Notes: a model not told the origin generated them from the sequence alone. DNA of 64,000 nucleotides from Alphaproteobacteria bacterium (GCA_965228775.1 OZ245840.1:773326-837325); one strand, 5' to 3'. Positions 5,113 to 47,948 are shown, numbered from the stretch's first letter. Translations and numbers: made by a program.

Positions 5113-5131
5113 CAGCCCCCCAGATCTTCCC

Positions 5132-23500: not shown

Positions 23501-23827
23501 ATGGCTGTAGTCTCTGATAAAATTCTTCAAATAATTAACCGCTCAATTCAAACTATTACTACCACAGAGCTAATCGAAGATTGGGAGTTCGCCATTGTGC
23601 TCGGAATTGAACGAAGTGTTCTTTCTGAGATGAGGAAAATCAGCAATCCCCTAGATTCGAGCGATCTTGACACAAGCATCAATGTGCTTCTCAATCTCGT
23701 CGGCTACCCGCATGGCAAGAAAGCAATCGTTGAAGAAAGCGTCGGTTTTTCTACTAGCGAGTTAAAAGCTGTGTTGGATGAACTCATCAAGCTCAGAGAA
23801 GAGTCCGGCGATAATGGCAACTCTTAA
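23501..23827 (+). CDS. putative cognate immunity protein of the Rhs CT toxin
   Basis: 108-aa acidic ORF starting 10 nt after the rhs stop, in an AT-rich tract. Position immediately 3' of a polymorphic toxin CT is the canonical immunity-gene position. No family recognised. Confidence 0.5.
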   Translation: MAVVSDKILQIINRSIQTITTTELIEDWEFAIVLGIERSVLSEMRKISNPLDSSDLDTSINVLLNLVGYPHGKKAIVEESVGFSTSELKAVLDELIKLREESGDNGNS

Positions 23828-24506: not shown

Positions 24507-24575
24507 TTGGTCAAGCCTTTTTGTGCCCAAAAACGGCCACAGGATTGGCATTCCCCAAACCTTCTTCTGTTCGCT

Positions 24576-25771
24576 TTACGACGCCAACGGCAATGTTATT
24601 GAGCGGCGCACCCGTGCGGGCGAGACCATCGATCTCACTTACGACCCGCTGGACCGGGTGGCGACCCGCGTGGTTCCCCAGCCGGGCACGCCAACACCGA
24701 TTACGTATACCTCGGCCTATGACAAGGCGGGGCGCATCGCCTCGCTCATGGGCGATGGCAAGACCCTCACCTTCTCTTACGACAAAGCCGGGCGCCTCAC
24801 TGCCAAGCTGCACGATCTGGGTGGCGGCGGGGGCACCACCAGCATCGGCTATGCCTATGATGCCGCGAGCAATGTCACCCAGCTCACCTATCCCGATGGC
24901 TGGTTTGCGACCCACGAATACGATGCGCTCAACCGCCTCGACCGCATTCTGGAAAACGGCACGCGAGTGCTGGCGGATTATGCCTATGACAAACAATCCC
25001 GGCGCACCTCCGTTGCCTATGGCAATGGCGCAAACTCCGCCTATACCTTCACCGCAAGGGGAGACTTGACGGACCTCACCCTGAACTTCGCCGTTCAGCA
25101 GGCGTCGTTCACCCATGCCTATGACGGGGTGGGACAGTTGACCGGGCGCACTCTGTCCGATCCGGCCTTTGCCCCGAAAGCCCTTCAAGCCGGTGCCACC
25201 AATTACACCGCCAACACGCTTAATCAGTATGCGTCCGTTGGCGGGTCCGCCTATACCTACGACCAGAACGGCAACCTCACCGGCACGCCCATCGGCAGTT
25301 TCGCCTATGACGCGGAGAATGTGCTGCGCAGCGGCACGGTGAACGGCCAGGCCTTCTCCTACACCACCTGGCCCGACGGCAATCGCGCCTCCAAGACCGT
25401 GGGCAGCCTGGATACGGTGTTCTATCTCAATGGCAATCAGGTGATCGCTGACTACGACGGCAGCGGCACCCTGCTGCGCCGCTATGTGCGCGGGCCCGGC
25501 GTGGACGAAGCGTTCCTGATGATCGACTACACAGGCGCCTCCCCGCAAGAAACCTGGGCCCACCAGGACCGGCTGGGCTCCACCATCGCCGTCAGCGACG
25601 ACACCGGTGCGGTACAGGAAAAGATTACCTATGCCTCCTTCGGGGAGACGCAAGCGCAGACCGGCTTCCCGTTCAAGTTTACCGGCCAGCGCTTCGATCC
25701 GGAGACGGAGCTTTACCACTACAAAGCCCGCTATTATTCCCCCACCCTCGGCAGATTCCTTCAAACCGATC
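24576..25771 (+). repeat. ~1.2-kb direct repeat copy B (orphan rhs fragment)
   Basis: See copy A (21670-22867). Divergence begins at ACCGATCC | CAATCGG versus CGTAGGG. Confidence 0.85.
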
Positions 25772-25959
25772 CCGTAGGGTATGCGGATCAGATGAATTTA
25801 TACGGGTACGGTGGTAATGATCCGATAAATCTGAAAATCCGGCAGGCGAATAACGGTATCCATTCATGGACAAGTCACCCCAAAGAGACTACCTGTTGTG
25901 ATACGAGGCGTAACTCCTTATGTCATTCTTTGACATCTGGGAAAAGTAATCGGTATTGA
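24576..25959 (+). pseudogene. orphan rhs C-terminal module (promoter-less, no start codon, truncated CT)
   Basis: The reading frame begins abruptly inside YD-repeat sequence identical to main rhs 21670 onward. It retains the RHS core up to RFLQTDP, then diverges (VGYADQMNLYGYGGNDPINL...) into a ~45-aa Cys-rich tail before the stop. No immunity ORF follows. The 3' end overlaps the convergent gspC-like gene. Confidence 0.7.
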
Positions 25960-26453
25960 TCTCCTTCGGTTACAAAGTGGACGGCCTCTTTGTCGATTGA
26001 GGCCACCTTCCATCCCGCCACGGCATCTCCAACCGATAACATCTCCCCTTCGCTTTGGGGTGTTTTCTTAAAGATCGCCTTCTGATCATTCCCAACGACG
26101 ATCGTTCCCACCAAGATCATTCGAGATAGAATGGTCTTGGCATCGGGAGGCGCCGGTGAAGCGGCCTTATTCGCTACTCTATCACTTTTATCTTTAACCG
26201 GCCGTTCCATATAGGTTCGGCTGGCGTGAAAGATAGGCTTCTCCTTGACGCTTTTATATGCCTTCAGTTCGGGCGTCTCGAAAGCCCATTGGGTCGTCGC
26301 GAGTGCAGACTCGTTTCGGGCAGAAGACCCGTCTGTGACCTCCAAATCCACCTCTATCGATCCAATGGTCAGCATATGCCAAGCAGCAATCGCGCCAACC
26401 GTAATTATCGACCCGATCAAAAATTGCGTAGCGGCGGGTTTAGCCATTCGCAC
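25923..26453 (-). CDS. T2SS GspC/PilP-like component (short, no PDZ domain)
   Basis: 176 aa. N-terminal TM (FLIGSIITVGAIAAW). The C-terminal EGEMLSVGDAVAGWKVASIDKEAVHFVTEGDQYRL resembles the GspC/PilP homology region that contacts the secretin. Last gene of the gsp operon. Confidence 0.4.
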   Translation of the reverse strand: MRMAKPAATQFLIGSIITVGAIAAWHMLTIGSIEVDLEVTDGSSARNESALATTQWAFETPELKAYKSVKEKPIFHASRTYMERPVKDKSDRVANKAASPAPPDAKTILSRMILVGTIVVGNDQKAIFKKTPQSEGEMLSVGDAVAGWKVASIDKEAVHFVTEGDQYRLLFPDVKE

Positions 26454-27027
26454 TCGCCTCTACATTTTGAACAAATCCGGAAACACCAAGCGTAACGTTT
26501 AGGACCGGGTTCCGGTCGCGGTTTGCCTCTCCTGCTCTTTGCTGTTTTACAGCCAAGCTATCCACGATGAGATATGGAACGGTCTTCTCAATATCGTAGA
26601 GAACCTTTTCCAACACTTGCATGTCGCCGTTAAAGGTAATGACGACAGGCACGCGCAAATTCTTGCCCGCCGGCGCCGAGGGGCGCCCTTGCGAACTGGT
26701 TACCTGACCGCCATGGTCCAAAATCCATTTCTTTAGGTCAGCTTGAATGGACGCCACAGCCACTGTGGGCGTCGCCGCTGATCGCAGAAAGGTTTGGTCA
26801 AAATCGGAGGCGTTTAAATCAGAAAGGCGCGCTGACAGATCGCCCGTGCTGCTGGCAATACGTTTGTATTGCGCCAGTTGGTGTTTTGCGTCGGCAATCG
26901 CATCTGTGTGGTCCATATATTCAGTCAACACTGGCCTCACAATAGAAACCGCAGCCACCCAAACCACAAGCGTCAAGATCATGAGAGCAAGCGTCTTTTG
27001 CTGCCAGCCGGAAAGCATGTTCATCAT
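26440..27027 (-). CDS. gspM: type II secretion system protein M
   Basis: 195 aa. Single N-terminal TM (LALMILTLVVWVAAVSIV) plus periplasmic domain. Position after the gspL-like gene and size typical of GspM. Confidence 0.55.
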   Translation of the reverse strand: MMNMLSGWQQKTLALMILTLVVWVAAVSIVRPVLTEYMDHTDAIADAKHQLAQYKRIASSTGDLSARLSDLNASDFDQTFLRSAATPTVAVASIQADLKKWILDHGGQVTSSQGRPSAPAGKNLRVPVVITFNGDMQVLEKVLYDIEKTVPYLIVDSLAVKQQRAGEANRDRNPVLNVTLGVSGFVQNVEASANG

Positions 27028-27032
27028 GTTCG

Positions 27033-28094
27033 TTAATCCCGCTTAAGGTTGACCATCAAGTCATATCGCTCACCTTTTTGCCGAGGGTCCTGCCGCACAG
27101 GTGATTGGAACCTGGCATTCGCAAACAATGGGGACTTCTCCAATAACTCCGGCAATATGGCGGCATTTTCGGCATACCCCATCAATCGTACCGAAGTCCC
27201 CTGCAGCCTCATTTCGGAAACCCAAGCCGTCTTGGGTATGATGCGAGAGAGTTCCGCCATTATAGCAAGCGGTGACGGTGCGATCTTCTGCTGGATCAGA
27301 GTGAGTCTGCTTTGCTCTAAGACATTCAGCTCCCGCTCAATGTCTGCAGCATGCTGAGCCTCGGCTTTCGCCCCCACAATCGCCGACTGCCACACTGAAA
27401 TGTCCTGCTGCCATCGATCTTGTACGACGCCCCAGGTAAACAACGAGGCCGAAACAAGTAATGCAAAGAGCAGAGCATTCAGCCGAAAAGTCGTTAGTCC
27501 GCTGGCTTTTCCGTCATGGGGTAGAAAATTATACCGGATATCTGATGTGCTTTTCTCCAACAGTCCGATGCCGGACGGCTTTACCCCCCAACTTGCAACC
27601 TTGTTCAGTACATCTTCAATGGCGTTTCGGCGAACGATTGCCAAATTGACCGCGACTTTCTCACTCACGGGTTTCCGTTCCAGCACCATATGATCGAAGA
27701 AAATCTGATCCGCCTTAACCGGTGACAACCGATCAATCTGCAATGCGATTACGCTTCTTAGGTTGGCTGACGCCGCGGTCGGAAAATCAAGTTGTCGGAC
27801 AAATGCTTGATCTGCTGAGATCGCGACTTGAAATGATTTCGCATTCTTGAGTGCCGCAAGCTGCCTTGGACGCTTAGCCCCCGCACGCACGCGCTCCAAA
27901 ACCGAAACGGTACCTCGCCTCCTTTTATAGATCGTGATCTCATCCCCGTGGAAATCAACAAACACACCGGACGAGCGACCGCCCGTTCTGGCGATGGGGG
28001 GCACCATCGACAGCAGCTCATTAGTCCACCATTTCCAGGCAGTCTCCAACAGGTCAGCAGACCTCGACAAGGTTCCAGTCTCAACGGGCATCAT
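27033..28094 (-). CDS. gspL: type II secretion system protein L
   Basis: 353 aa. Cytoplasmic actin-like N-domain, central TM (LLFALLVSASLFTWGVV), periplasmic C-domain. Sits between gspJ and gspM. Confidence 0.6.
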   Translation of the reverse strand: MMPVETGTLSRSADLLETAWKWWTNELLSMVPPIARTGGRSSGVFVDFHGDEITIYKRRRGTVSVLERVRAGAKRPRQLAALKNAKSFQVAISADQAFVRQLDFPTAASANLRSVIALQIDRLSPVKADQIFFDHMVLERKPVSEKVAVNLAIVRRNAIEDVLNKVASWGVKPSGIGLLEKSTSDIRYNFLPHDGKASGLTTFRLNALLFALLVSASLFTWGVVQDRWQQDISVWQSAIVGAKAEAQHAADIERELNVLEQSRLTLIQQKIAPSPLAIMAELSRIIPKTAWVSEMRLQGTSVRLMGYAENAAILPELLEKSPLFANARFQSPVRQDPRQKGERYDLMVNLKRD

Positions 28095-28766
28095 TTACCT
28101 CCGCCGACAGTTCCGGCTGACCGGATCGTATTGGCATTGTGAATCCATATCGATACGCGGATGAACTACAAGGGGGACCCAATCACGTTCATCAAATTCT
28201 CTTTTCAGATTAACCCTCACCAACTCCGGAAGACCGTTCTTCGCGTTCCATCGGTTGCCCCATCGGACTCCGTCAAAATACTCCAATTCGAACTTCTCAA
28301 CCTGGTCAAGCAATACTTTGCTTTCCGTCGCCGCATCGTAGCGCGGGTCGCGCCGACCATTGCGATCGACAATCCAGTCAAGCATCAACGTCCTGGCGTC
28401 TGTTCCGGACTGCTCATATCGCAAACGAAAACGGTGCAACCCTTTCAGCTGAAACTGCCGTGGCGCATCAGCCGAGAAAATCAGTTCCTGCGGCTCACCA
28501 ATAAACGGCGGCGCCCCGTCGGATTTTGATGTCTCGTGATAATAAGGATAGCTCCGGGCCACCAGATCGTACACAAGCTGCCGCACGACGCGAATTTCCT
28601 CGACCGACTCTGAAGTCGATTGAGATCTCTCCCATACCCTGGTGCCAAACTGCATCCCCCCCAAGATCATAGAGGCCATGAGAGCCACCAGTGTCATGGC
28701 CACCAAAAGCTCCATGAGGGTGAAGCCCGCCTCCTCGGGTTCTATCGTTGTCCATTCAATCTTCAC
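28095..28766 (-). CDS. gspJ: type II secretion minor pseudopilin J
   Basis: 223 aa. Prepilin leader plus GFTLMELLVAMTLVALMASM (class III signal with E+5). Size fits GspJ. Confidence 0.6.
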   Translation of the reverse strand: MKIEWTTIEPEEAGFTLMELLVAMTLVALMASMILGGMQFGTRVWERSQSTSESVEEIRVVRQLVYDLVARSYPYYHETSKSDGAPPFIGEPQELIFSADAPRQFQLKGLHRFRLRYEQSGTDARTLMLDWIVDRNGRRDPRYDAATESKVLLDQVEKFELEYFDGVRWGNRWNAKNGLPELVRVNLKREFDERDWVPLVVHPRIDMDSQCQYDPVSRNCRRR

Positions 28767-29185
28767 ATGGGGTCCCCAGAAAACTTCACCGTACTCATTT
28801 CAAATAATAACCGGCCGGAGCTTTCTTCATGTACAGACACATGGGCGCGGTAAAGACGAGTCTCTCGGTTTTTGCTCTCCTCCCCTTGTGGAATTATCTG
28901 CATCAGCTCAGGATCAAATGGGTCTATGACAACCCTCCAACCAAAACCATACGGTTCATAAACGCCAACGACTTCCTGACGCCTGAGCTCGATAGACGGC
29001 CCTACTTCTTCGAGCTTAGACTGGGCAAAATAGCCTGCGTCCAACAAAAGTTCGGAATGGGATATTTTTTTTTGCCCCAATGAAAAGCTCTGCAGGAGGA
29101 CGGTCACCGACATAGCGAGGATGGCAAACGCAACAACCACCTCCGTCAGCGAAAAGCCCGATTGCCCGTGCCTCTTATCGACCAT
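28763..29185 (-). CDS. gspI: type II secretion minor pseudopilin I
   Basis: ORF-track frame extends to 29236. Likely start MVDKRHGQSGFSLTEVVVAFAILAMSV (prepilin motif G-F-S-L-T-E), ~140 aa. Confidence 0.55.
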   Translation of the reverse strand: MVDKRHGQSGFSLTEVVVAFAILAMSVTVLLQSFSLGQKKISHSELLLDAGYFAQSKLEEVGPSIELRRQEVVGVYEPYGFGWRVVIDPFDPELMQIIPQGEESKNRETRLYRAHVSVHEESSGRLLFEMSTVKFSGDPM

Positions 29186-29639
29186 ATTCCATGACCGCTC
29201 GTCCCGTGAGCCAATCAACCAAGATCGTTTTCTCATTCCCGTTCGATTTCAGAACTATCCTGCCGTTGTAGGCACCACCATTTTCAATGAACCTTAGAGC
29301 CTTGTAGTTTGGTTGCCCCACATGACGTTCCGTATCCATTGAGAGGTTGATCCCATCCGGTACGGAATTCCAAGATTTGCCAAAATCAATACTGTAGCGT
29401 TGATCGATTTCGTCCAACCAAAACTCTTTCACCACTCCCTCCCTATGAGCTGTAAACCTCAAGTGTTTGATGTCGCCCAACAGATCTTGCGTTGCCTTGT
29501 TCAGTTGAACACCTGGAACGAATTGATTGTATGCAACTGGAATCAAGGATATCGCCAGAATCAAAATGGCCATGGAAACAAGCAGTTCCACGAGCGTGAA
29601 ACCCGCCTGAGCATCAATTCCAGCTCGTGATATCGGCAT
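29175..29639 (-). CDS. gspH: type II secretion minor pseudopilin H
   Basis: Frame extends to 29744, overlapping gspG. Probable start MPISRAGIDAQAGFTLVELLVSMAILILA (prepilin motif). Confidence 0.5.
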   Translation of the reverse strand: MPISRAGIDAQAGFTLVELLVSMAILILAISLIPVAYNQFVPGVQLNKATQDLLGDIKHLRFTAHREGVVKEFWLDEIDQRYSIDFGKSWNSVPDGINLSMDTERHVGQPNYKALRFIENGGAYNGRIVLKSNGNEKTILVDWLTGRAVMEYGR

Positions 29640-30051
29640 TCTCCCCCTCACCGCCTTCTTTCTTGTCAGGTCCCAGTGAAAAGAGATCGAACCTTCCATA
29701 CTTACCCGGATGTGAATATCGATAAGGTGTCCCCCATGGATCAATCAGGCTGGCTTCCTTACGGACATATGGGCCGTTCCATGTTTCTGCGCTGGTCGGT
29801 TTGACGACAAGGGCTGCAAGCCCTTCCTCCGTTGACGGAAGACTGCCCGTATCCAAATAATAGAGATCCAATGCGTTCACGAGGTTTTCGATTTGGATCG
29901 TCGCCGCGTCCGATTTGGCCTTGCCCAGATATCCAACGACCTGGGGCGCCACGAAACCAGCAATCAACACCAGGATCACCATCACAGCAAGAAGCTCGAC
30001 TAAGGTGTAACCGTCTTGTCCTTTCCATCTATGACTCTTCTGCTTACTCAT
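29614..30051 (-). CDS. gspG: type II secretion major pseudopilin G
   Basis: 145 aa. GYTLVELLAVMVILVLIAG prepilin N-terminus and the GspG-specific C-terminal block DPWGTPYRYSHPGKYGRFDLFSLGPDKKEGGEGENADITSWN. Confidence 0.9.
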   Translation of the reverse strand: MSKQKSHRWKGQDGYTLVELLAVMVILVLIAGFVAPQVVGYLGKAKSDAATIQIENLVNALDLYYLDTGSLPSTEEGLAALVVKPTSAETWNGPYVRKEASLIDPWGTPYRYSHPGKYGRFDLFSLGPDKKEGGEGENADITSWN

Positions 30052-30077
30052 TGCCCCCTCGTTAATTGCTCACGTAA

Positions 30078-31295
30078 TCACAATGCTAATTGGTTGATGC
30101 TGAGTATTCCGACCAACACCGCAACAATCAAACCACCGACAACAATTCCCATCCCAATAGTCAAAACCGGTACAAGCAGCGTCAACAGCCGCTCCACCGT
30201 ATTTTCCACTTCACGCTCGTAGATATCAGCAACCTGCAGAAGCATTTCGTCTAGCCGTCCTGTTTCCTCCCCCACGGCGGTCATTTGGATAAGAAGATCC
30301 GGAAAGACGTTTGTTTTTCGCAGTGCATTGAGGAACCGGCTTCCTTCCCTCACCTGCTCCCGCATATCGAGACATGCATTTCGGACGACCAAGTTGCCCG
30401 CCGTTTCACTCGACCTTTGCAATGCCACGTGGAGCGGTAGACCGTTCTGCAGAAGCATGCCAACAGTCCTTGCGAATGCTGCACTTTCGGTTTTCAAGGC
30501 CAGCCCAAAGAAGGCTTTCTTACCTAGGATCGCTCGATCGACAAGTTTGCGGGTAGGCGGATGACTGAAGCTCCTAATTGCGACGACTGCAAACACCGCC
30601 AAAGACAGCAAAACGAGCCAGCCCCATTTCTCGAAAAACGTTCCGACACCCATGACCAACTGGGTCACCAACGGCAGCTGCGATCCGGCATCGTCAAATA
30701 CTTCCTTAAACTGAGGAAGAACGTATCCGACGACCAGAACCATCGTTACGCTGATCATAATCAAGAGGAATATAGGATAAATCAGAGCAGACGTAATCCG
30801 TGTACGAATTGCTTCAGTTTTCTTAAGATGCAACGATAGCCGCTCAAGCACTTCACTCAATGTTCCGCTCGCTTCGGCTGCACTTACCAGACTGGTGTAG
30901 TAGCGGGGAAAATCTGAGGAAGTCTTTTCTAATGCCCGAGCAAACGATGTGCCGTTTCGCAAGAGGTCTAGCATACGCTCGATTGACGTTCGCACCCCCT
31001 TACGGTCCGAATTGCTGCTAATGATCCGCAACGCCCGCTCCAGTGTAAGGCCGCTTCCAATCAAATTTGAGAGATCTCGTGTAATAGCGGTCAGCTCCGT
31101 AGTCGAGATATCACTTTGCCGGAACAAACCACCCAGCCCGGCAGGAGTACCGCCCTCAGGCATAAGATCTATTTGCAATGGGGTGTGACCTTGCCCCAAC
31201 AGCCAGTCCACAACAGCCGCTTCCGTGGCGGCATTTGTGTTGCCCGAAATGGTTTCCCCAGAAGACGTGAGAGCAGAGTATGAAAATCTCGCCAT
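30078..31295 (-). CDS. gspF: type II secretion inner-membrane platform protein F
   Basis: 405 aa. Two GspF-type repeats, each with a cytoplasmic domain followed by TM helices. Conserved LAL/GLPL motifs. Confidence 0.85.
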   Translation of the reverse strand: MARFSYSALTSSGETISGNTNAATEAAVVDWLLGQGHTPLQIDLMPEGGTPAGLGGLFRQSDISTTELTAITRDLSNLIGSGLTLERALRIISSNSDRKGVRTSIERMLDLLRNGTSFARALEKTSSDFPRYYTSLVSAAEASGTLSEVLERLSLHLKKTEAIRTRITSALIYPIFLLIMISVTMVLVVGYVLPQFKEVFDDAGSQLPLVTQLVMGVGTFFEKWGWLVLLSLAVFAVVAIRSFSHPPTRKLVDRAILGKKAFFGLALKTESAAFARTVGMLLQNGLPLHVALQRSSETAGNLVVRNACLDMREQVREGSRFLNALRKTNVFPDLLIQMTAVGEETGRLDEMLLQVADIYEREVENTVERLLTLLVPVLTIGMGIVVGGLIVAVLVGILSINQLAL

Positions 31296-31296
31296 C

Positions 31297-32982
31297 TTAG
31301 ATGTCTCGCGTCACCCGAAAGACTTCTTCAATAGTCGTTTCACCCCGAAGCGCCTTTATGAGGCCATCCTCAAATATCGGTCTCATGCCATCTTTGATAG
31401 CTTGACCTTTGAGTTCCGTCTGTCCTGCACGTTTTAATACGAGCGCACGAAACTCGTCGGTTGTCTTTAGGATCTCAAAAATCGCAATGCGTCCGCGATA
31501 ACCGGTACCGTGACATTCAGAACATCCTTTAGATGCAAAAAGCTGTATGCGCTTCTTCCCCGAGCGTTCGTGCAAGTTAAGGCGACGGACCAGTTCTGGG
31601 GGGGCATCATAGGCCGTTCGGCAGTTGGGACACAACTTGCGGACAAGCCTTTGGGACAAAAGACCAACAACAGCTGAAGTAATAAGGTAATCATCAACGC
31701 CCATATCCATCAGCCGGATAACGCCACCGATTGCATCATTCGTATGTAACGTCGACAGCACCAGATGACCGGTTAGAGCTGCTTGGATACTGATGTCGGC
31801 GGTTTCCCTATCACGGATTTCCCCAACCATCATGACATCCGGATCTTGCCGCAGGAACGACCGCAACCCATTGGCAAAGGTTCGACCTATATCCGGATTA
31901 ACCTGCGACTGATTAACCCCGCCGAGAACGTATTCAATGGGGTCTTCAATTGTGAGGATCTTGCGTGCGCTGGTATTCAGTTTGGTAAGCGCGGTATAAA
32001 GCGTGGTTGTCTTCCCGCTGCCGGTAGGACCGGTAACAAGAAGGACACCATGCGGATGACTGATTAGCTCTTCAATATTTTCTTGTGCCTTATCGTCAAA
32101 ACCAAGTGAGTGGAAATCAAGCTCAAGCGAACCGCGATCCAAAATACGTAGAACGACGCTCTCGCCGTGACTCGTCGGCACGGTCGAGACCCGAAGGTCT
32201 ATCGGTTTACCGCGTATTACGACCTTAATCCGGCCGTCTTGTGGTAGACGTCTTTCAGCAATGTCGAGGTTTGCCATTATTTTTGCACGCGAAACTATCG
32301 CAGCCGCCGCCGCCAAAGGCGGGCTTTCAATTTCACTCAACACGCCATCGATGCGAAGCCGTATACGCAATCGCCGCTCCAACGGTTCTATGTGGATATC
32401 CGACGCGCCGGCATCAACAGCGCGGGCGATTACTGCGTTTACAAGCCGGACAATGGGCGCTTCGCTCGCAAGATCTCTTAGTCGGCTCGCCTCATCGGAA
32501 ACATCAATTTCCTCATCAGCATCACCCGTCAAATCCTCTCCCGGCCGCGGAAGGTCATAAAGCCGATAGACTGCTTCCTCAATTTCACTTCTCGTCCCAA
32601 CTGTTGGAGTGACGGGCCTAGAGAGCGCAAATGAAACGCCCTCTATCGCGGACTCATCTCGTGGATTCGACAGCGCGACTGCGACATAATCATCTTCTAT
32701 CGCCAATGGAAGCACGCGAGATTGCAGCAAGTACTTTGCGCTAAAAACGTCGGCCCCCACCCCTTCATCCGGGTAGTCGTCCGGACCTGACCTGACTAAA
32801 CCAAGCGCTTCGCAGTAAATCTCGGCGAGATCGTTTTCCGTCATCGCTCCCAGTTGCACAAGTATCTGTTCGACGGCTTCTCCAGTCTCAAGAGACAAGG
32901 ACGTTGCCCTTTCGAAGTCTGACTCCTCGACACTAGGGATTTGTGCGATTGCATCTAGGACGACGTCGCTTTCTTGTTCCAA
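31297..32982 (-). CDS. gspE: type II secretion ATPase E
   Basis: 561 aa. GspE N1 domain, Walker A GPTGSGKTT, Asp/His boxes, and the C-terminal tetracysteine CPNC...CSEC motif typical of GspE (versus PilB). Confidence 0.9.
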   Translation of the reverse strand: MEQESDVVLDAIAQIPSVEESDFERATSLSLETGEAVEQILVQLGAMTENDLAEIYCEALGLVRSGPDDYPDEGVGADVFSAKYLLQSRVLPLAIEDDYVAVALSNPRDESAIEGVSFALSRPVTPTVGTRSEIEEAVYRLYDLPRPGEDLTGDADEEIDVSDEASRLRDLASEAPIVRLVNAVIARAVDAGASDIHIEPLERRLRIRLRIDGVLSEIESPPLAAAAAIVSRAKIMANLDIAERRLPQDGRIKVVIRGKPIDLRVSTVPTSHGESVVLRILDRGSLELDFHSLGFDDKAQENIEELISHPHGVLLVTGPTGSGKTTTLYTALTKLNTSARKILTIEDPIEYVLGGVNQSQVNPDIGRTFANGLRSFLRQDPDVMMVGEIRDRETADISIQAALTGHLVLSTLHTNDAIGGVIRLMDMGVDDYLITSAVVGLLSQRLVRKLCPNCRTAYDAPPELVRRLNLHERSGKKRIQLFASKGCSECHGTGYRGRIAIFEILKTTDEFRALVLKRAGQTELKGQAIKDGMRPIFEDGLIKALRGETTIEEVFRVTRDI

Positions 32983-33826
32983 GGAACACCCCCAAAACGA
33001 CGCAAAGTAACAAAGCGTTCAGTTAACTATAAGTTTAACGCCATTCTGTTTTTAATTCATGCGCGAGTCAACCGTAAGTTATAGGGCTTTTGGGGATATC
33101 GTTTTTGAAGCTTGTTGTAGTGCGCCGAGAATACACAGTGTTCGTATAAGGTTATGCAGGAACAATAAATCTTTTCTCACACCTACCTGAAGACCATATG
33201 TCACAAACAATTCGTAAAAAGGAATTTGGTTGACAACAACCCGCAATGCTTCGGCGCTACATATGTGGGAAACTTGCACACCACACAAAGATGAGTCAAT
33301 AGATTTTGCATCAAAAACGTCTATCAAAGGCAGGACGCAGAGATTGAGAACAACCACGCGCCAAATTACTTCGTATACGGAAATATAACGCCATTTATGG
33401 AACAGAAGTCATTCAATCGGAAGAGATTCCTGATCCGAAAAATTGTGAACCGCAGCCGCGTGGTAATCACTTGACTCTCGCTTAAAGAGTGTGCGTCAAT
33501 CAGCAATTAGTTGTTCCAGGTTTAGTTGAGTTTGGAACGTTCTAAGTGGGGGTATTAAGTGGCCATCGAGAGGTCTGCCGAATCCGATCTTTCCGTAATC
33601 TCTTTCCCTTTTTGCCAAGTCGTACCGAGCTAGATAATCCCGCCGCATAAGTGCATCGGCCTGCCTGGCAAGGTAATCGGCGTCAAGACGAACTGTGTCG
33701 CTGTTCACGTCGTCTTTTGTATGTTGCGTTTGAAATAGTGCTTTTACACACACCGAGTCGCGTGCAAAAAGCTGGCGTGGTTGGGCGAGTGGTTGAGAAA
33801 AAGTGAAGCTCGTCCGAGGGGGAATT

Positions 33827-35944
33827 ATGGGTCCGGCGATTGCCCGAACATTTTGTATTTTCGTAATTCTACTCTTGGCTGCTTGCGGAACAAAACAACA
33901 AGACACGAAATCATCGAGCACTGAGGCTTCGCAGCAAACCGACCTCGTGAGCATGCCACCAGCGGAAAAGAATGCGATTTCGTTTGGACCGGATATCGAC
34001 TCCAAGACAGAGATTGAGAACGAGGCCCTCGCCCGTAAAATTAGAAACGATGATGTGGTATTGGGGACTGGTCAGTTCTTCTCTGGCCTAAAAGGTAAAC
34101 CTGTTTCCGAAGTCATAGATGCCGGCGACGGCATAACTCTGAACTTTGTTGACGCCGAAATCAAAGACGTCATGCGTGCGGTTCTGGGCGAAACGCTCAA
34201 CATGAACTACGTACTGGATCCCGAGGTTCGTGGCAGGGTTACGCTCAAGTCAAACAATCCGATCCCTAAGGAAGCAGTTCTTTTTGCGGTGGAGGGCGCC
34301 CTTCAGCTCAATGAAGTTGCGCTGGTAGAGGACAACGGGGTGTTTCAGGTAATGCCCATGCAAAAGGCCCGGTCCCGCATGACGTCGCTCAAACCCTACA
34401 TTCCACCACGGGGCAAGTCTGAAGGATACAGCGTGCGTGTTGTGCCTCTACAATTCACAACAGCACAAGCGATGGAGGAGGTACTTAGGCCGCTCGCGCC
34501 CCAAAACGGCATTTTGCGCGTCGATCATGACCGGAACCTTTTCCTCATTGCAGGCACGCAGTCAGAACTCGACGCCATGCTCGATACCATTGACGTTTTT
34601 GATGTTGACTGGCTTTCAAGCATGTCGTTCGCAATTCTAAGACCTGACAATGTCGATGCTAAGACGCTAGCAAATGAACTTGGTTTCGTTTTCGAGGATC
34701 GTGAAAGTCCAATCTCGGGACTTGTAAAGTTGATCCCAATTCCCCGCATCAACTCGATCCTAGTAATGTCTAAACAGCCCTACTACATCTCACAGATACA
34801 AGAATGGGCAATACGTTTAGATCGTAGCGCTGATTTGCAGAAAAGAAGGATATATATTTATCGTGTTCAGCACTCGCGCGCTGAAGACCTTGCTGGGTCT
34901 CTGGGCGATCTACTTGGAGCGGGAGGAGAAGGCTTCTTTGCCAGCGGTTCCGTAACGCAAACAATATCCGCGACGACACCCGGAAGCTCTACGATCGACG
35001 CAACGAGGCCTGCAACTGTCCCCACCGCAGGCCGAAACAGCGCTGCACCAGATGGCGGTCTCAGGATTGTCGCGGACGACAAAAACAATGCGTTGATGAT
35101 ATTGGCAACACCGCACGAATATAAACTCATTGAGACTGTATTAGATCAGCTAGACGTGGCGCCGGATCAGGTTTTGATTGAGGCTTCAATTGCCGAGGTC
35201 GCGCTAAATGACGACCTCGCTTACGGCGTCCAATGGTTCTTTCAAAAGAATGACAGCACGTTCACATTCAGTGACGCCGCTTCCGGCGCAATCGCTTCAG
35301 CTTTCCCAGGGTTTTCATATACCTATCTTCTGGACGATCGCGAGATCGTGTTGAATGCACTCGCATCTGTCACAGACGTTCAAATACTGTCTTCGCCAAA
35401 GCTAATGGTTGTTAACAATCAGACAGCCAGCCTCCAGGTGGGGGATCAAGTGCCCATAGCCACTCAATCGGCTGTCAGCATCTCCGATCCTGACGCCCCA
35501 ATCGTGAATAATATCGAGTTTCGCGATACGGGCGTCATACTGGAAGTAACGCCGCGCATTAACAAAAGCGGAACTGTACTATTGGATGTGTCTCAGGAGG
35601 TAAGCGACGTTGCTGATACTGTAACGTCTGGTATCGACTCGCCAACAATTCAACAACGAAAGATCTCGAGTACTGTAGTCGTTCAAGACGGAGAGACTGT
35701 CGCACTTGGCGGGCTGATACGGGATACGGAATCTGTCTCTGAAAGCGGTGTCCCGCTGCTGAAAGACATTCCGGCTGTTGGAGAGCTTTTTAAATCAAAC
35801 GACAACAGCAGCCGGCGCACCGAACTTTTGATTTTCATAACTCCGAGAATAGCAAGCAATGTGGAGGAAACCCGCGCCATCACCGACTATCTCCGAAATG
35901 AGCTGTATAAGGTCGATGAACTTGCGCGCGGAAGAAAAAACTGA
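33827..35944 (+). CDS. gspD: type II secretion secretin D (lipoprotein-type signal)
   Basis: ORF-track frame from 33803. MGPAIARTFCIFVILLLAACG lipobox. N0-N3 domains. C-terminal secretin core (VVVQDGETVALGGLIRDTESVSESGVPLLKDIPAVGELFK...LLIFITPRI). Confidence 0.85.
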   Translation: MGPAIARTFCIFVILLLAACGTKQQDTKSSSTEASQQTDLVSMPPAEKNAISFGPDIDSKTEIENEALARKIRNDDVVLGTGQFFSGLKGKPVSEVIDAGDGITLNFVDAEIKDVMRAVLGETLNMNYVLDPEVRGRVTLKSNNPIPKEAVLFAVEGALQLNEVALVEDNGVFQVMPMQKARSRMTSLKPYIPPRGKSEGYSVRVVPLQFTTAQAMEEVLRPLAPQNGILRVDHDRNLFLIAGTQSELDAMLDTIDVFDVDWLSSMSFAILRPDNVDAKTLANELGFVFEDRESPISGLVKLIPIPRINSILVMSKQPYYISQIQEWAIRLDRSADLQKRRIYIYRVQHSRAEDLAGSLGDLLGAGGEGFFASGSVTQTISATTPGSSTIDATRPATVPTAGRNSAAPDGGLRIVADDKNNALMILATPHEYKLIETVLDQLDVAPDQVLIEASIAEVALNDDLAYGVQWFFQKNDSTFTFSDAASGAIASAFPGFSYTYLLDDREIVLNALASVTDVQILSSPKLMVVNNQTASLQVGDQVPIATQSAVSISDPDAPIVNNIEFRDTGVILEVTPRINKSGTVLLDVSQEVSDVADTVTSGIDSPTIQQRKISSTVVVQDGETVALGGLIRDTESVSESGVPLLKDIPAVGELFKSNDNSSRRTELLIFITPRIASNVEETRAITDYLRNELYKVDELARGRKN

Positions 35945-36812
35945 GGCAAAAGAGTCGGCGTCATCCCGCAATGCGGGGTTCGCGCTTGCAAGTGTTCTAT
36001 GGTCCGTTCTTCTCTTGGCCTTGCTAGCGGCAACCGTTGGTTCCGTTGCAAATACGGAACGAACGCTCACGACAAGACATCTCGATTTCTTGAACGACAG
36101 AGCCGCAGCAGAGGCTGGGCTTGCGATTGCTGTCGCGCGGCTGACAAACGCGACGCAGGAGCGTTCCGTCGGCATGAAAGCATTCGATGAGTCGTTGCTT
36201 TACAACGGCCGGACAATAGATGTTTCATTTCGGGATGAGCATGGCAAAGTCGATCTGAACACAGCTGACGCTAGCATTTTGGATAGCCTATTTCTGATGG
36301 CCGGCTTGGATCAAGAAGAGGCTAGCGATTTTAAGGATAGGCTTCTGGACTGGCGTGATCGAAATGAGCTTACCCATTTAAACGGGGCAGAAGCATCTGA
36401 ATATGCGTCCGTTGGCCGGCACTATGCACCTCGCAATGCCCCGTTTGAGACAACAGATGAAATATCCCAAATACTCGGTGTCAACGATGCGCTGATGGCC
36501 TGTCTTGCCCCGTCTTTAACGGTTCACTCAGGACGAAAAACAGCCAATGCTCTGACTGCGACAGCTTTAACGCGGCATGCACTTCAATCGCTTCAGCAAC
36601 AGCTAGATGGAAACGATAGCCGACCAGCGGCGAGTGCTCAGAAAAATACAGTTAGCCGCGTTTTCGAGATATCGGTAGAAGCCGGCTTCGCGCGGGCGAC
36701 AACGATCATAAAAGTAACGGGCAACAAAGAAACACCATATTGGCTAATGAGTGCCCGCCCATTCATACACTCGGAAAAATGTCCAAAGACCAGCAATCAC
36801 AGATCTCCTTAG
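35916..36812 (+). CDS. gspK: type II secretion minor pseudopilin K (start uncertain)
   Basis: N-terminal NAGFALASVLWSVLLLALLAA (GspK-type pseudopilin without E+5). Internal DLNTADASILDSLF...DWRD helix-hairpin-helix-like segments as in GspK. Overlaps the gspD 3' end. Confidence 0.55.
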   Translation: MNLRAEEKTEAKESASSRNAGFALASVLWSVLLLALLAATVGSVANTERTLTTRHLDFLNDRAAAEAGLAIAVARLTNATQERSVGMKAFDESLLYNGRTIDVSFRDEHGKVDLNTADASILDSLFLMAGLDQEEASDFKDRLLDWRDRNELTHLNGAEASEYASVGRHYAPRNAPFETTDEISQILGVNDALMACLAPSLTVHSGRKTANALTATALTRHALQSLQQQLDGNDSRPAASAQKNTVSRVFEISVEAGFARATTIIKVTGNKETPYWLMSARPFIHSEKCPKTSNHRSP

Positions 36813-36857
36813 TCACGATCCGCAGATCCACCTCTTCGCAGGACTAGAATACTGGAG

Positions 36858-37598
36858 ATGATCTTAGCAGTATCTGCTCTGTTAGCGGCGCCTTTTGTGG
36901 GAAGTTTTCTCTCTCTGCTCGTCCACCGCATTCCGCAATCTGCTCAATGGGTCTTCGGTCGCTCACATTGCCCGCAGTGTGGCCAGTCACTTCGCCCCTT
37001 TGATCTCGTGCCACTTGTTTCATTCGCTGCAATGCGCGGCAAATGCAGATACTGCGGCCAGTCCATTCCCATGATGTACTTGATTATAGAACTTTTGGCG
37101 GTTGCTGTTTGCCTGTGGGCAATCGCACAGGTACCGACACATCTTGTATGGCCAACATGTATTCTTGGTTGGACTTTGCTTGTATTGTCGGCAATTGATT
37201 TTCAACATCGAATATTGCCTGATGGCCTCAATATATTCCTTGCGTTAACGGGCGTCGCAACATGCGTTCTGTATTACAGCGATCAACTGCTCGTTCAGTC
37301 TGCCGGTGCACTATTGGGGTTCGCAATTTTCTTCGCCATCGGAGAGATTTACCAACGAGTCCGCGGTCGGCCGGGACTGGGTATGGGAGACGCGAAACTC
37401 ATGGCTGCCGGGGGGTTTTGGATTGGAGCACCCGGCATCCTCACCGCACTGCTTATCGCATCATTATCGGCGCTTACGTTCGTTGCACTAGCCAACGCGG
37501 CATGTAAACAACCGCTACAGCGACACAGCAAGATCCCCTTTGGGCCATTTTTATCTTTGGGTATCTGGACCGGTTGGATGTTAGGCCCCATCCTATGA
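36858..37598 (+). CDS. gspO: prepilin peptidase (A24 family)
   Basis: 246 aa. N-terminal CPQCG...CRYCG zinc-binding tetracysteine and conserved polytopic core with catalytic Asp residues (DGL, GMGDAKL). Confidence 0.85.
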   Translation: MILAVSALLAAPFVGSFLSLLVHRIPQSAQWVFGRSHCPQCGQSLRPFDLVPLVSFAAMRGKCRYCGQSIPMMYLIIELLAVAVCLWAIAQVPTHLVWPTCILGWTLLVLSAIDFQHRILPDGLNIFLALTGVATCVLYYSDQLLVQSAGALLGFAIFFAIGEIYQRVRGRPGLGMGDAKLMAAGGFWIGAPGILTALLIASLSALTFVALANAACKQPLQRHSKIPFGPFLSLGIWTGWMLGPIL

Positions 37599-37710
37599 AC
37601 AGCTTTCACTTACCAATAACAGCTGACTTTCGCCCCATTCTACGCGCAATATTTTTCCGCCGGGTACGAAGGATCGCGTCAGAGATTAACTGCATATTCA
37701 GCGCGACAGT

Positions 37711-37992
37711 TCAGCAACCTGCTATCGAGTTAGCCCTCGTTCGTAAGTTGGCTCTGGTACGATTTTGAAGAGTTGCCGATTGCACCCCCAATTTATGATA
37801 GAGTTTTCGGACATCATCAACAATATGGGCTGATTTCCTAAGCACCTCAGGTACATTTTTTCCAATAGCGCTTTGAGGCCGTCGCTCATTGTAGTCTCTA
37901 CGCCATGCCTCCAACTTTTCTGCCGGCCAAGCCCTAGAGTTTTCGCTTGACCTCTTCCTGGAACATCGCTTAATCGAGCAACAAATCGGCAA
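37711..37992 (-). pseudogene. IS3-family transposase C-terminal fragment
   Basis: Contains LEAWRRDYNERRPQSAIGKNVP, the conserved C-terminal tail of IS3 OrfB/rve integrase-domain transposases. No intact catalytic domain or inverted repeats seen. Confidence 0.5.
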
Positions 37993-38609
37993 AAATACTT
38001 TTAAGCCGACTGCTCTCTTTCTTCAGCTCGCGAAACCTCTTCGTTCCTCAAAGCACCATGCCCAAGTACTCTTTCCTCAAGTTGACGTGGTCGCTTGGCT
38101 GATCCCAGATTGCGGACAGACCTCCGCCACCGACGTGCCCTCTCACCTTGCTTCGCTATTCCATTCTTTCCCTCAGCCAGGAGACGCCCAGGGAAATTCT
38201 TACTCGTTTCGAGGTATTTAGCGGAAGTATATCAAAGAATGATCACGCACGCAGTTGTCAATACTCGACCTTCTATGCTCCTACGGGTCCTTCTGAGATC
38301 GCGATGTTATACGGGTGCTTTGCGCATGACACTTCGCTAGTTGAGATCAAAAGTTTTTCGTACACAGTTCTTGCATGCGCGGACATGCGCGCGGCATGTT
38401 TGTTATTCCGCAAACCATTCTGCCGCCTGCTCTTTTTCAAGCTGGACATGTTGGACATTTCTTTTCTCTTTTGAAGAAAGAGGAAAAGGAGTTATAGAGA
38501 ACGCGTGAATTTGAACCGTTTTCCGATCCGTTGCTACGCCGTTGCTAGCCAGCTTTGGGGCTCGGAATAGAGGTTCAACTTCAACGACTTAAAGCGAGAA
38601 GACCACTGC

Positions 38610-38654
38610 TTTGTAATCAGGGGGTCGGGTGTTCAAGTCACCCAGCCGGCACCA
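38610..38654 (+). repeat. exact 45-nt direct repeat of tRNA-Thr 3' end (putative attR of island 1 / attL of island 2)
   Basis: TTTGTAATCAGGGGGTCGGGTGTTCAAGTCACCCAGCCGGCACCA is identical to 6965-7009. Confidence 0.8.
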
Positions 38655-38770
38655 CCCAATCTGGTATTCATTCTTGTCACTTGGTTTACGGGTTTGTACC
38701 GGGAGACCTAGAGCGCGATCAGGTTACCTTGAAAAATGATCAAGCGCAGCTCTTACATACGCGGTGGGAT

Positions 38771-40009
38771 TTAGAAGGCATACCGCAACGATAGTTCTGC
38801 AAAATCGTTATCCCGGAATTCGCCCAAGTCGGAACCGGTTTGACCGCCGAACAGGAAGACGCGGGCCGTGAGTGTAACCGCATCATTGAATTCGTAATCC
38901 GCGAAAGTCTCAATGGTATACTGACCTTCATTCGCGACTTGCCCCCGCACACCGGCTTCCGTTGCGTCATCAAAGAAGGAGTTCGTGATCGCGAATGTAC
39001 CGCCATAAGTATCGTCCGCATCGCCGAAGCGGTCGAAAAACAGTTGTACATTGATATAGAGGTCGGTGAGAAACGTCCTGTCCCATCCAACAATCACCTG
39101 GCTGAGGTCCGTGGTCCGGCCAAGACCTAAGGGGAAGTCTGGCGTGTAGGCAATTTCTCCACGCCATGTGCTCTTCGCCTGGCCAATCGCTGCGCCAAGA
39201 CTCATTGTCGTAAACCGCGCCGGGGTTAACCGGACAAGATCCGGTGTTTGCAACGACAAAAGCGGAAAATCCGAAAGGCCGTTGAAAACGGCGAAGCTCC
39301 AGTCGAATCCTTCACCAAATCGCAAGAACCGGAATCCACCTTCGTGAACTTTTGGATTTCCGATGTTTAATTCGAACGTGCCGGCGTCATCCGCGGTTCG
39401 CAGATCAGAAAGAAAACCAATCTCCCATGGGTTCCCCTGTTCCGGAATCTTGCGATCGCGCCCTATAGGCAGCCATACCCCCTCAAACACGCCAATGGAC
39501 GTTGTATGCTCAACGCGGGCGACCCAAGACGGCCTGCGCGCGGAGGTGCGCGCATTTCCGATAGGATCGCGGAAATCGACCGCGTTTACACGATCGATCG
39601 TGCTGCGTCCATCTGCCGTCCCCCATGGAATACGCTGACGGCCAAGCGTTATGTCCGTCGACGGACCATCGAAAACGCCATAAGCCTCGATGACCTCACC
39701 GCGAAAGGGACTGCGGTAATCCTCGGTCGCTTGATCATACTCACCATAAGCGCTGGTGAAGAAACGCCATTTGTCAGACTTAGAGGCATATTTGATTTCA
39801 AGCTGCCCCCTCTGCCGTATGGACAAGAATGAGTCCTGTTCGATGAAACGCTGATTTCGCGACTCGAAAAAACCAGACACACGCCACTGTCGTTCCTGAG
39901 ACGTTTCCGCCGACAGATCAAACGCAAATGGGTCCTCTTGAGCGAACAATGCAGGGCTGCCGCAAATAAGCCCTCCAACGAACCCCAACCATGTTATGAG
40001 CCCCCGCAC
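38771..40009 (-). CDS. outer-membrane beta-barrel protein (DUF1302-like)
   Basis: 412 aa. Signal peptide, alternating amphipathic beta pattern, C-terminal ...LSLRYAF ending in Phe (OMP signature). Adjacent to the LolA-like and RND genes. Confidence 0.4.
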   Translation of the reverse strand: MRGLITWLGFVGGLICGSPALFAQEDPFAFDLSAETSQERQWRVSGFFESRNQRFIEQDSFLSIRQRGQLEIKYASKSDKWRFFTSAYGEYDQATEDYRSPFRGEVIEAYGVFDGPSTDITLGRQRIPWGTADGRSTIDRVNAVDFRDPIGNARTSARRPSWVARVEHTTSIGVFEGVWLPIGRDRKIPEQGNPWEIGFLSDLRTADDAGTFELNIGNPKVHEGGFRFLRFGEGFDWSFAVFNGLSDFPLLSLQTPDLVRLTPARFTTMSLGAAIGQAKSTWRGEIAYTPDFPLGLGRTTDLSQVIVGWDRTFLTDLYINVQLFFDRFGDADDTYGGTFAITNSFFDDATEAGVRGQVANEGQYTIETFADYEFNDAVTLTARVFLFGGQTGSDLGEFRDNDFAELSLRYAF

Positions 40010-40017
40010 CCTCAGAC

Positions 40018-40788
40018 CTAACGCTTGAGCGCCCCTTGTTCGAACGCGTCATCGGACAGTCCGACATTGTAGTCTACGTTAAAGTATTGCATGCGGGTTT
40101 TGGATTTGCGGCGGGGCGTTTCCATGATCAGCTTCGTCGCTGTCCAAATACCATCGACGTTTTCGATACCCCCTTGAACCATGGTCTTCAGCAAACGATC
40201 ACGGCGATCGTAATATTCAATCCGCAAAGGCAACCAATACTCTTGATCGACCCACAATTTTCGCTTGGCATAGTTTGAGTCCGTTGCCTTGATCGGGATT
40301 GGAACGGACTCGATCACATAGACCGCCCGCTCCCCCACTGCGGCTTCCTCGACCAGCGTATGGATGTCGTCATCGACGGCCCGTTGCTCGATATCTTCAT
40401 TGGCAAAATCGCTGCGCATGAAAGACCCTTTCTTGCCGCCGCCGCTAATCCTTCGGACGAGGTTCTCCGTTGGAAAATACACCCAGAGGTCATCATCTTT
40501 TTCCGTGTCATCGTAGACCCAGGAAAGGTATTTCGTGTCCCGAACATCGGCGGGCTCATCGAAGGTAATAAGCGAGCGCTCATCGACACCGTATTTCTTA
40601 TTCTGCATGCGAAGTTTGCGGACAAGTTTCTGCCCCCCGCGCTCGATGACCATTGTGGCTTCTCTTTGTCCGTCGTCGGACGTATCCACGTCGTCCATCT
40701 TGACCGCAATGTCCCTGCCGGTGAGTGCCTGAGCTTGACTACTCAATGCAACACTTGCGACCAAAATAAGAGCCGTTACATGCTTCAT
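40018..40788 (-). CDS. outer membrane lipoprotein-sorting (LolA-like) family protein
   Basis: Probable start MKHVTALILVASVALSSQAQA (signal peptide). The ORF-track frame extends to 40863. LolA-like fold family often paired with MMPL/RND exporters. Confidence 0.45.
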   Translation of the reverse strand: MKHVTALILVASVALSSQAQALTGRDIAVKMDDVDTSDDGQREATMVIERGGQKLVRKLRMQNKKYGVDERSLITFDEPADVRDTKYLSWVYDDTEKDDDLWVYFPTENLVRRISGGGKKGSFMRSDFANEDIEQRAVDDDIHTLVEEAAVGERAVYVIESVPIPIKATDSNYAKRKLWVDQEYWLPLRIEYYDRRDRLLKTMVQGGIENVDGIWTATKLIMETPRRKSKTRMQYFNVDYNVGLSDDAFEQGALKR

Positions 40789-40799
40789 CTCTGAACTCC

Positions 40800-43205: not shown

Positions 43206-43352
43206 CTAATCTTCGAAAAAATATACCGCCGTTCCAAAAATCCCCACACGATTTTCATCCCCACTTCAAAACAAAAACAGCGCGAATTATCTAAAAAAAC
43301 AAAAGCTTAGAGCTCTACCGAAGAGGCCTGAGCCATTTTGTATACGCGTATA

Positions 43353-44015
43353 CTATTTCCAATCCGGGATGCCGTCAAGCATGACTTTTAGGTTTTCCAC
43401 ATATCGCTCGCGCCCGCGATGATCCGGATTGGGCGCCTCTTCCATCAGCGCTTTCAATGTCGGATATCCTTCTGCATGGGTCATCATAAATTGCCGGGCC
43501 ACCGACGGACCGTCGCTTCGTGCCTCGACGTCCGTTAGTCCTTGATCAATCATCAGAGTGCCTACGGAAAACTTCCAAACCATGTTGTAGGCTTGGCTGG
43601 CCTTCTTCAAGGGCAGCCCCCCGTCTACAAACGCTTTGATGATTTCCTCCACGAACCAGAGGATCGACGGGCCGATGGACATTTCTTTTGCCAAAACCTC
43701 CTGTGCCCATGGGTTGGCGGCCAAGCAATCGTACAGCGCCAGCCAAAGCACGACCAACCGCTCTTTCGGATCGTCCGCAAGTTCGGGCTTTGGAATTTCT
43801 TTCGCCAATTCATCCAGCACAAGAACGATAAGGTGATCCATGCTTTCTACATGACGATAGATCGACATGGGAGAGCTACCGAGTTCTTCCGCTATACGCC
43901 TCATACTTAGCGACGTGCCGCCACTGGCTTCGAGAAGACGTTTAGCAACCGCAACAATGTCGTCACGGGACAACCGCGCGGGGCGACCGCGGGTGCTGGG
44001 CCGGGATTTTGTCAT
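43353..44015 (-). CDS. TetR/AcrR family transcriptional regulator
   Basis: 220 aa. N-terminal HTH LSMRRIAEELGSSPMSIYRHVESMDHL (TetR_N). Upstream of and co-directional with the RND module. Confidence 0.8.
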   Translation of the reverse strand: MTKSRPSTRGRPARLSRDDIVAVAKRLLEASGGTSLSMRRIAEELGSSPMSIYRHVESMDHLIVLVLDELAKEIPKPELADDPKERLVVLWLALYDCLAANPWAQEVLAKEMSIGPSILWFVEEIIKAFVDGGLPLKKASQAYNMVWKFSVGTLMIDQGLTDVEARSDGPSVARQFMMTHAEGYPTLKALMEEAPNPDHRGRERYVENLKVMLDGIPDWK

Positions 44016-47945: not shown

Positions 47946-47948
47946 GGT

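Follow-up and report, generated by a model that had tools for sequence, protein, structure and literature searches.

A genomic island that joins a type II secretion system to an Rhs toxin and a YD-hairpin adhesin, its candidate cargo

Why should one genomic island hold a complete type II secretion system (T2SS) together with genes for an Rhs polymorphic toxin and a giant adhesin, and could the machine serve to export its neighbours? The locus that raises this question belongs to an Alphaproteobacteria bacterium (GCA_965228775.1, OZ245840.1:773326-837325) and was analysed as one stretch of 64,000 nucleotides (nt), here called the window, with coordinates counted from its first letter. We regard it as probable that the segment 7010-38654 is a horizontally acquired island forming one functional module, in which a T2SS with a lipoprotein secretin (liposecretin) and a prepilin peptidase of its own is combined with an Rhs toxin and a partner protein. 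Because these three parts travel together in related bacteria, we suggest that the T2SS exports both the Rhs protein and the adhesin. A preliminary description of the window had already proposed a dedicated relation between them; the linkage proved to be conserved and recurrent, and export itself we infer. Comparative genomics thus substantially strengthens the cargo hypothesis, which is unproven.

The evidence begins with the closest relative of the cluster. A search with the secretin GspD returned one identical protein, a single metagenomic relative at 76% and, from 50% identity downwards, a large family; leaving that relative aside, the nearest GspD proteins reach at most 48% identity and come mostly from Alphaproteobacteria. 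The relative is represented by two overlapping loci (L001 and L084) on a single 424-kilobase (kb) metagenomic contig, and its GspL and GspC-like proteins are 53% and 37% identical to those of the window. There, gspE, F, G, H, I, J, L, M and C follow one another on one strand, then come two small open reading frames (ORFs) and an Rhs gene on the opposite strand, and finally, on the first strand again, a cadherin gene followed by gspD, gspK and gspO. The Rhs cassette and the cadherin gene therefore sit between gspC and gspD, inside the T2SS cluster, with the cadherin gene ending 72 base pairs (bp) before gspD on the same strand and the Rhs gene divergent from it. The products are of 171 amino acids (aa; GspC), 2184 aa (Rhs) and 1021 aa (a cadherin/Big_9 protein). 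Inverting the relative's segment from gspE to the cadherin gene gives the order of the window exactly: adhesin (minus strand), Rhs (plus), immunity and orphan genes, gspC to gspE (minus), then gspD, gspK and gspO (plus). We thus attribute the two divergent operons of the window to one inversion of a module of 15 genes common to both.

The surroundings of the module differ between the two genomes. Upstream of the relative's module lie genes for a ParB-methyltransferase, a DUF5681 protein, a helix-turn-helix protein and Mrr, and downstream lie a fatty-acid hydroxylase and Lnt. These flanks had no similarity to the window, and no tRNA gene was found near the relative's module. The module therefore occupies different sites in the two genomes, and it seems to move as a unit, since the relative's flanks share nothing with the window and include genes of mobile type. 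The preliminary description had allowed for the linkage being coincidental, should relatives carry the same layout at a non-island locus; the relative's module was found instead in a context rich in mobile genes, and it keeps both the Rhs and the adhesin gene.

The association extends well beyond this pair. A scan of species-representative genomes showed that the GspD family is mostly alphaproteobacterial, with carriers among Rhizobiales, Micropepsaceae, Rhizomicrobium, Nitrospirillum, Magnetospirillum, Caulobacter endophyticus and some Gammaproteobacteria. When the proteins of the window were mapped by tblastn onto 80 genome loci of this GspD clade, an Rhs gene was found in 15 of them, each time within about 2.7 kb of a gsp gene. 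The carriers of such linked loci include Mesorhizobium, Sinorhizobium fredii USDA 205, Rhizobium chutanense, Aquibium, Nitrospirillum viridazoti and Pelagibius, and the divergent cadherin/Rhs pair was seen again in one further locus (L016). Most Rhs proteins of the 15 linked loci begin with a recognisable signal peptide, so that a candidate substrate gene with such a peptide is conserved beside the machine in the window, in the closest relative and in further linked loci. In a neighbour-joining tree of GspD, computed without bootstrap, the window groups with four loci that are all Rhs-linked (L001, L004, L009 and L122) and with L006.

The reverse search started from the N-terminal 840 residues of the window Rhs protein, which match no Pfam family; an alignment of this domain was then scanned against metagenomes. 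Among six contexts of homologs of the domain, one (L088) shows a T2SS cluster with the Rhs gene immediately behind it and genes for a ParB-methylase and a DUF5681 protein close by, and the other five have no T2SS within the sequence available. Across the metagenome loci found with the N-domain, gsp genes are present in 16 of 79, and in 14 of the 38 with at least 4 kb of upstream sequence. By a rough estimate, a random 11-kb locus would overlap a 12-kb cluster in a genome of at least 3 Mb by chance in less than 1% of loci.

A third component recurs with the Rhs gene. Related Rhs genes are adjoined by a stand-alone protein of 60-107 aa that consists of a signal peptide and a single YD hairpin (Y.YD.LGRL...Y.YDAAGNRT), and the sequence of this protein aligns with the N-terminus of the window adhesin. 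A gene for such a secreted hairpin stands beside Rhs in 45 of 58 informative metagenome loci; it is fused to cadherin repeats in 12, and some loci encode a hairpin protein with a few cadherin repeats. Because the hairpin occurs beside Rhs both alone and as a cadherin fusion, the conserved unit, as read from these sequences, is Rhs plus a secreted YD-hairpin partner, of which the window adhesin appears to be an expanded form. The adhesin itself is composed of a Sec signal peptide, one YD-repeat hairpin, approximately 25 Big_9/cadherin-like repeats and a C-terminal domain of about 150 aa. At the N-terminus (15939-16049), its signal peptide is clear, reading ...ALFAFSALTVLAGAAVA↓ETYDYDELGRL..., after which the single YD repeat follows. 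Sequence searches of Pfam, NCBIfam and PDB gave nothing significant for the C-terminal domain, and the protein showed no match to an RTX-type family. An incomplete collection of literature yielded no description of a secreted YD-hairpin partner.

The machine beside these genes belongs to the T2SS family and is of the Xps/alphaproteobacterial type. From an ORF listing and profile searches, an intact 12-gene cluster was identified at 25923-37598, with the gspC-like gene and gspM, L, J, I, H, G, F and E on the minus strand and gspD, K and O on the plus strand, and no frameshift was seen across the 12 genes. The preliminary description was thus right that all core gsp genes are present in two divergent operons. 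Each of the 12 genes has family support. Judged by the NCBIfam cut-offs, which are curated equivalog bit scores, GspD, GspG and GspM exceed theirs; GspE falls slightly under (619 bits against 630), GspF is below (345 against 424), and so are the XpsH, XpsI, GspJ and GspK matches, the minor pseudopilins fitting the Xanthomonas Xps models best. Family support is weak for the gspC-like gene, which is backed by an ortholog of 37% identity in the corresponding place in the closest relative. The expected functional motifs can be read in the translations: prepilin cleavage sites of the type G↓F(T/S)L.E in GspG, H, I, J and K, a Walker A motif (GPTGSGKTT) and a tetracysteine motif (CxxC...CxxC) in GspE, and paired CxxC motifs with GxGD in GspO. 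GspD carries an N-terminal lipobox (LLAAC, with the cysteine at position 19); since this cysteine is kept in more than 90% of 27 aligned clade members, GspD is predicted to be a lipoprotein and a self-piloting liposecretin. The system as a whole would export folded Sec or Tat substrates across the outer membrane.

How unusual is its layout? Across the 80 clade loci, where counts are lower bounds owing to the weak similarity of gspK, the genes usually run E F G H I J L M (C) D K, in many cases with O next. In at least 30 of 76 informative loci gspK comes immediately after gspD; gspO lies within the locus in at least 39 of 80, and gspE and gspF are on the strand opposite to gspD in at least 22 of 55. 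Linkage of gspO is also standard in the T2SS clusters of Klebsiella, Erwinia and E. coli. The layout of the window is therefore mostly typical of the clade with one inversion added, and the earlier view of gspK as displaced, and of the peptidase as a gene that is usually unlinked, was not borne out; the frequencies above make both arrangements clade norms.

The two operons diverge from an AT-rich gap that the preliminary description had put at about 800 bp, close to the 848 bp that we find. The promoters of both operons presumably lie in it. Counts of predicted promoters and terminators equalled the expectation from shuffled sequence, and a repeat scan did no better than chance, finding only a 15-nt repeat in two copies and a 12-nt inverted repeat. 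No homology of this region to the closest relative was detected. Two minus-strand ORFs, at 33079-33357 and 33496-34005, are of doubtful coding status because they match no family and have no counterpart in the closest relative.

The Rhs gene most likely starts at the ATG at 16817, six bases downstream of a GGAGG. Its product probably begins with a signal peptide of 46 aa ending AAA↓Q, which is long but plausible, and continues into an N-domain with a transglutaminase-like fold, modelled with a predicted local distance difference test score (pLDDT) of 66.5 overall and above 80 across much of the first 340 residues. None of the 15 family members has the nucleophilic cysteine, while His and Asp are kept in every one; the domain probably serves for binding and not for catalysis. 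The YD-repeat core ends with ...YYSPTLGRFLQTDP...YTDPSGE at approximately residue 2058 of the ORF, after which comes a C-terminal tip of 182 aa. Neither the tip nor the adjacent 108-aa immunity candidate matched any family in Pfam, NCBIfam and PDB sequence searches, and Pfam showed no PAAR, VgrG, chaperone or other domain linked to type VI secretion systems (T6SS) on Rhs or among its neighbouring genes. Its architecture suggests that the toxin would be antibacterial. The toxin tip of the orphan Rhs fragment further downstream is cut off where it abuts the gspC-like gene, probably by a deletion or a rearrangement junction.

All of these genes lie between a tRNA-Thr gene and a directly repeated copy of its 3′ half: the gene's final 45 bases recur without mismatch at 38610-38654. 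The tRNA gene and this exact repeat place the adhesin, the Rhs locus and the T2SS together on an island of 31.6 kb, with the T2SS between the Rhs locus and the attR side, as first described. The low GC content that had been called visible is real but small, at 0.509 for the T2SS compared with 0.560 in the left flank and 0.526 in the right. No integrase ORF was found at either end of the island (7010-7566 and 37600-38610). Coordinates of all features are collected in the table below.

Table. Features of the island and of related loci, with the support for each assignment
Feature	Position	Strand	Support or remark
tRNA-Thr(TGT)	6934-7009	+	ARAGORN; left boundary, attL side
Giant secreted adhesin	7566-16049	-	Pfam; start ATG 16049 (MQKLNG...) inferred, ORF reaches 16241
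Rhs/YD-repeat polymorphic toxin	16817-23491	+	RHS_repeat E=3.9e-39
Candidate immunity protein	23501-23827	+	108 aa, acidic, no signal peptide; 9 bp past Rhs stop; assigned by position
Orphan Rhs C-terminal core fragment	24523-25959	+	96% nt-identical to Rhs gene positions 4896-6098
gspC-like (transmembrane segment and HR-like domain, no PDZ; 176 aa)	25923-26453	-	NCBIfam GspC_delta E=3.9e-6, below cut-off
gspM, XpsM type	26440-27027	-	136.7 bits, cut-off 60
gspL (weak PilM-like cytoplasmic N-terminus, transmembrane segment, PilN-like periplasmic C-terminus)	27033-28094	-	Ortholog P0147, 53% identical
gspJ, minor pseudopilin	28095-28766	-	Profile match
gspI, minor pseudopilin	28763-29236	-	XpsI match; likely start ~29185 from ortholog length in relative
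gspH, minor pseudopilin	29175-29744	-	XpsH match; likely start ~29639
gspG, major pseudopilin	29614-30051	-	146.8 bits, cut-off 88.85
gspF, inner-membrane platform	30078-31295	-	Pfam T2SSF E=3.8e-59
gspE, ATPase	31297-32982	-	Pfam T2SSE E=4.7e-143
Divergent intergenic region	32983-33829	.	848 bp, 44.9% GC; inversion junction relative to closest relative
gspD, secretin (ATG 33830)	33830-35944	+	Pfam N0, Secretin_N x3, Secretin; TIGR02517 474.6 bits, cut-off 351
gspK, minor pseudopilin	35859-36812	+	Profile match; likely start ~35919
gspO, A24 prepilin peptidase	36858-37598	+	Profile match
Degenerate IS3-family transposase fragment	37711-37992	-	rve_3 E=1.3e-5, below cut-off; translation
45-bp exact direct repeat of tRNA-Thr 3′ half	38610-38654	+	Right boundary, attR
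YD-hairpin partner genes in related loci	L087 9668-9850; L088 9672-9893; L089 9652-9909; L090 9586-9855; L092 9000-10004		

Several further observations concern mobility and the neighbourhood of the island. A 30-bp copy of the tRNA-Thr 3′ end at 49143-49172 bounds a second segment of 10.5 kb (38655-49172), which suggests tandem islands; its genes encode a DUF1302 protein, a LolA-like/DUF1329 protein, an MMPL/RND-type transporter, a TetR regulator and a BtuF/C/D-like ABC importer, and no integrase was found among the ORFs scanned there. Just to the right of this second att-like repeat, 49195-53549 encodes a LuxO/NtrC-like sigma-54 response regulator and a 976-aa hybrid histidine kinase. Outside the island as well, 57900-61191 holds a PrtD-type ABC transporter of a type I secretion system (T1SS) followed by a 452-aa ORF (59833-61191). 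Genes for a ParB_N-N6_N4 methyltransferase and a DUF5681 protein flank the T2SS-Rhs module on two unrelated metagenomic contigs, that of the closest relative (1102-2460 and 254-1109 in L084) and L088 (21124-22841), and are absent from the island in the window; the shared flanks hint at a common mobile-element carrier.

How might the parts work together? In the mechanism that we propose, the Rhs protein, whose gene is accompanied by those for the immunity candidate and the orphan fragment, and its partner would cross the inner membrane via Sec, and the YD shell of Rhs would then fold in the periplasm round the C-terminal toxin. The pseudopilus of GspG, H, I, J and K, powered by GspE, would push Rhs and partner through the GspD liposecretin. 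Once outside the cell, the YD-hairpin partner would use its cadherin/Big_9 array to present the Rhs capsule or to target it, with the hairpin mediating contact between the two proteins. More tentatively, the window may be one member of a widespread and undescribed class in which a dedicated liposecretin T2SS exports Sec-dependent Rhs proteins, and in which the hairpin either docks on the shell and so couples it to adhesin stalks that vary in length, or acts as a structural recognition signal that both proteins share for the T2SS.

Several points weigh against this reading. The enrichment of Rhs genes near the T2SS rests on an assumed background rather than a measured control; Rhs is absent from most T2SS loci of the GspD clade, so that the linkage is frequent and not universal; and most Rhs-N-domain loci with sizeable flanks have no gsp gene within 10 kb. 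The signal peptide of the window Rhs is less canonical than those of its relatives, having a long n-region and a weakly hydrophobic core, and the Rhs capsule is near the expected size limit of a secretin channel. The antibacterial role is drawn from architecture only, because the toxin tip and the immunity candidate match no family. The same two absences, of Rhs from many clade T2SS loci and of a T2SS from many Rhs-N-domain loci, would fit a general-purpose T2SS that shares its island with Rhs and adhesin by accident, these proteins leaving the cell otherwise or, in the case of Rhs, staying in the periplasm or on the surface; the T1SS encoded in the same window would offer one other exit. We think this unlikely, given that the Rhs and cadherin genes of the closest relative are embedded between gspC and gspD and that adjacency within 2.7 kb recurs in distant lineages and in both search directions. 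Nor would the T1SS readily take the adhesin, a poor fit as its substrate because of the N-terminal Sec signal and the absence of an RTX-type family.

The T2SS might also export the cadherin-repeat adhesin only, with Rhs relying for its delivery on a T6SS or some other system whose genes lie elsewhere. The position of the relative's cadherin gene, 72 bp upstream of gspD and on the same strand while Rhs is divergent, would agree with this, as would the fact that Rhs toxins of Gram-negative bacteria are typically T6SS cargo. We give it little credence: no PAAR or VgrG-related domain is present on Rhs, the linked Rhs proteins have N-terminal signal peptides, and the partner in most linked loci is the 60-107-aa hairpin without adhesin repeats, where the T2SS linkage is nonetheless kept. 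Finally, the cluster could be a remnant, decaying or without function, or else a type IV pilus-like system mistaken for a T2SS, as might be thought from the scores of GspE and GspF just under their equivalog cut-offs, the resemblance of GspL to a PilM-PilN fusion, the loss of the integrase from the island and the truncation of the neighbouring orphan Rhs. This is very improbable, with 12 of 12 ORFs intact and bearing catalytic and processing motifs and with orthologs kept in the closest relative. The pilus version was rejected, T2SS-specific families being present: GspG, GspJ, GspK, GspM (XpsM) and the N0-N3 domains of GspD were all found, with GspD, GspG and GspM above their cut-offs.

Export of Rhs and partner by the T2SS, the reading that we prefer, would have consequences for how polymorphic toxins are delivered. 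Rhs toxins in Gram-negative bacteria are usually viewed as T6SS cargo, and the passage of signal-peptide-bearing Rhs proteins across the outer membrane is largely unstudied, with one genetic precedent in the bacteriocin Bcn-A. If the reading is true, it would provide a second delivery route for polymorphic toxins, contact-independent or guided by an adhesin, and a very large, structurally defined T2SS substrate with which to study how cargo is recognised and what size the secretin channel can admit. The idea is testable in cultured relatives with linked loci, among them Mesorhizobium, Sinorhizobium fredii USDA 205, Nitrospirillum, Aquibium and Pelagibius.

Among known systems, the machine most resembles the Xps T2SS of Xanthomonas, for its GspM, H, I and J are recognised by NCBIfam models specific to Xps, and the backbone order E-F-G-H-I-J...L-M-C/N-D is the one seen in the window's relatives. 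It differs from Xps in having gspK after gspD and not after gspJ, a linked gspO, a lipobox on the secretin, a minimal GspC (176 aa, without PDZ) and a block from gspE to gspC that is inverted relative to gspD, gspK and gspO. The Hxc system of P. aeruginosa, which exports LapA and has HxcQ as its liposecretin, and the Txc system of strain PA7, which exports CbpE and is borne on an island, are accessory T2SSs with the cargo gene adjacent. The window shares with them the accessory T2SS with candidate cargo beside it, a predicted liposecretin, as in HxcQ, and the location on an island, as in Txc. Its candidate cargo is, in contrast, a 2,200-aa Rhs capsule and a 2,800-aa adhesin rather than a phosphatase or a chitin-binding protein, and no adjacent two-component regulator was found at the window T2SS. 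HxcQ is a lipoprotein secretin that pilots itself (Viarre 2009, as cited in PMC2996285).

The nearest functional precedent is Bcn-A, an antibacterial RHS-family bacteriocin of Xanthomonas perforans whose extracellular activity is lost in an xpsD mutant; it has an immunity gene downstream and requires the accessory ORF2 and ORF4 (PMC7259588). The likeness is one of description, namely an Rhs/YD-repeat toxin, an immunity gene (in the window a candidate) downstream of it and a link to a T2SS secretin, whereas Bcn-A uses the housekeeping Xps, is not reported within a T2SS cluster and has no YD-hairpin or cadherin partner described. A cargo relation between Rhs and a T2SS, which the preliminary description took to be undescribed, is thus foreshadowed by the xpsD dependence of Bcn-A; of Rhs genes that lie inside T2SS clusters or recur beside them, the incomplete literature collection holds no account beyond Bcn-A. 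The toxin itself recalls T6SS Rhs effectors such as Tse5 and RhsA and the TcB/TcC cocoons of Tc toxins in its YD shell, which in all of them encloses a variable C-terminal toxin, in its core-end motif and in its candidate immunity gene and orphan fragment. It departs from both in lacking PAAR, VgrG, chaperone or TcA genes and in its linkage to a T2SS, and also in its N-terminus, where a probable Sec signal precedes a transglutaminase-like pseudo-enzyme domain.

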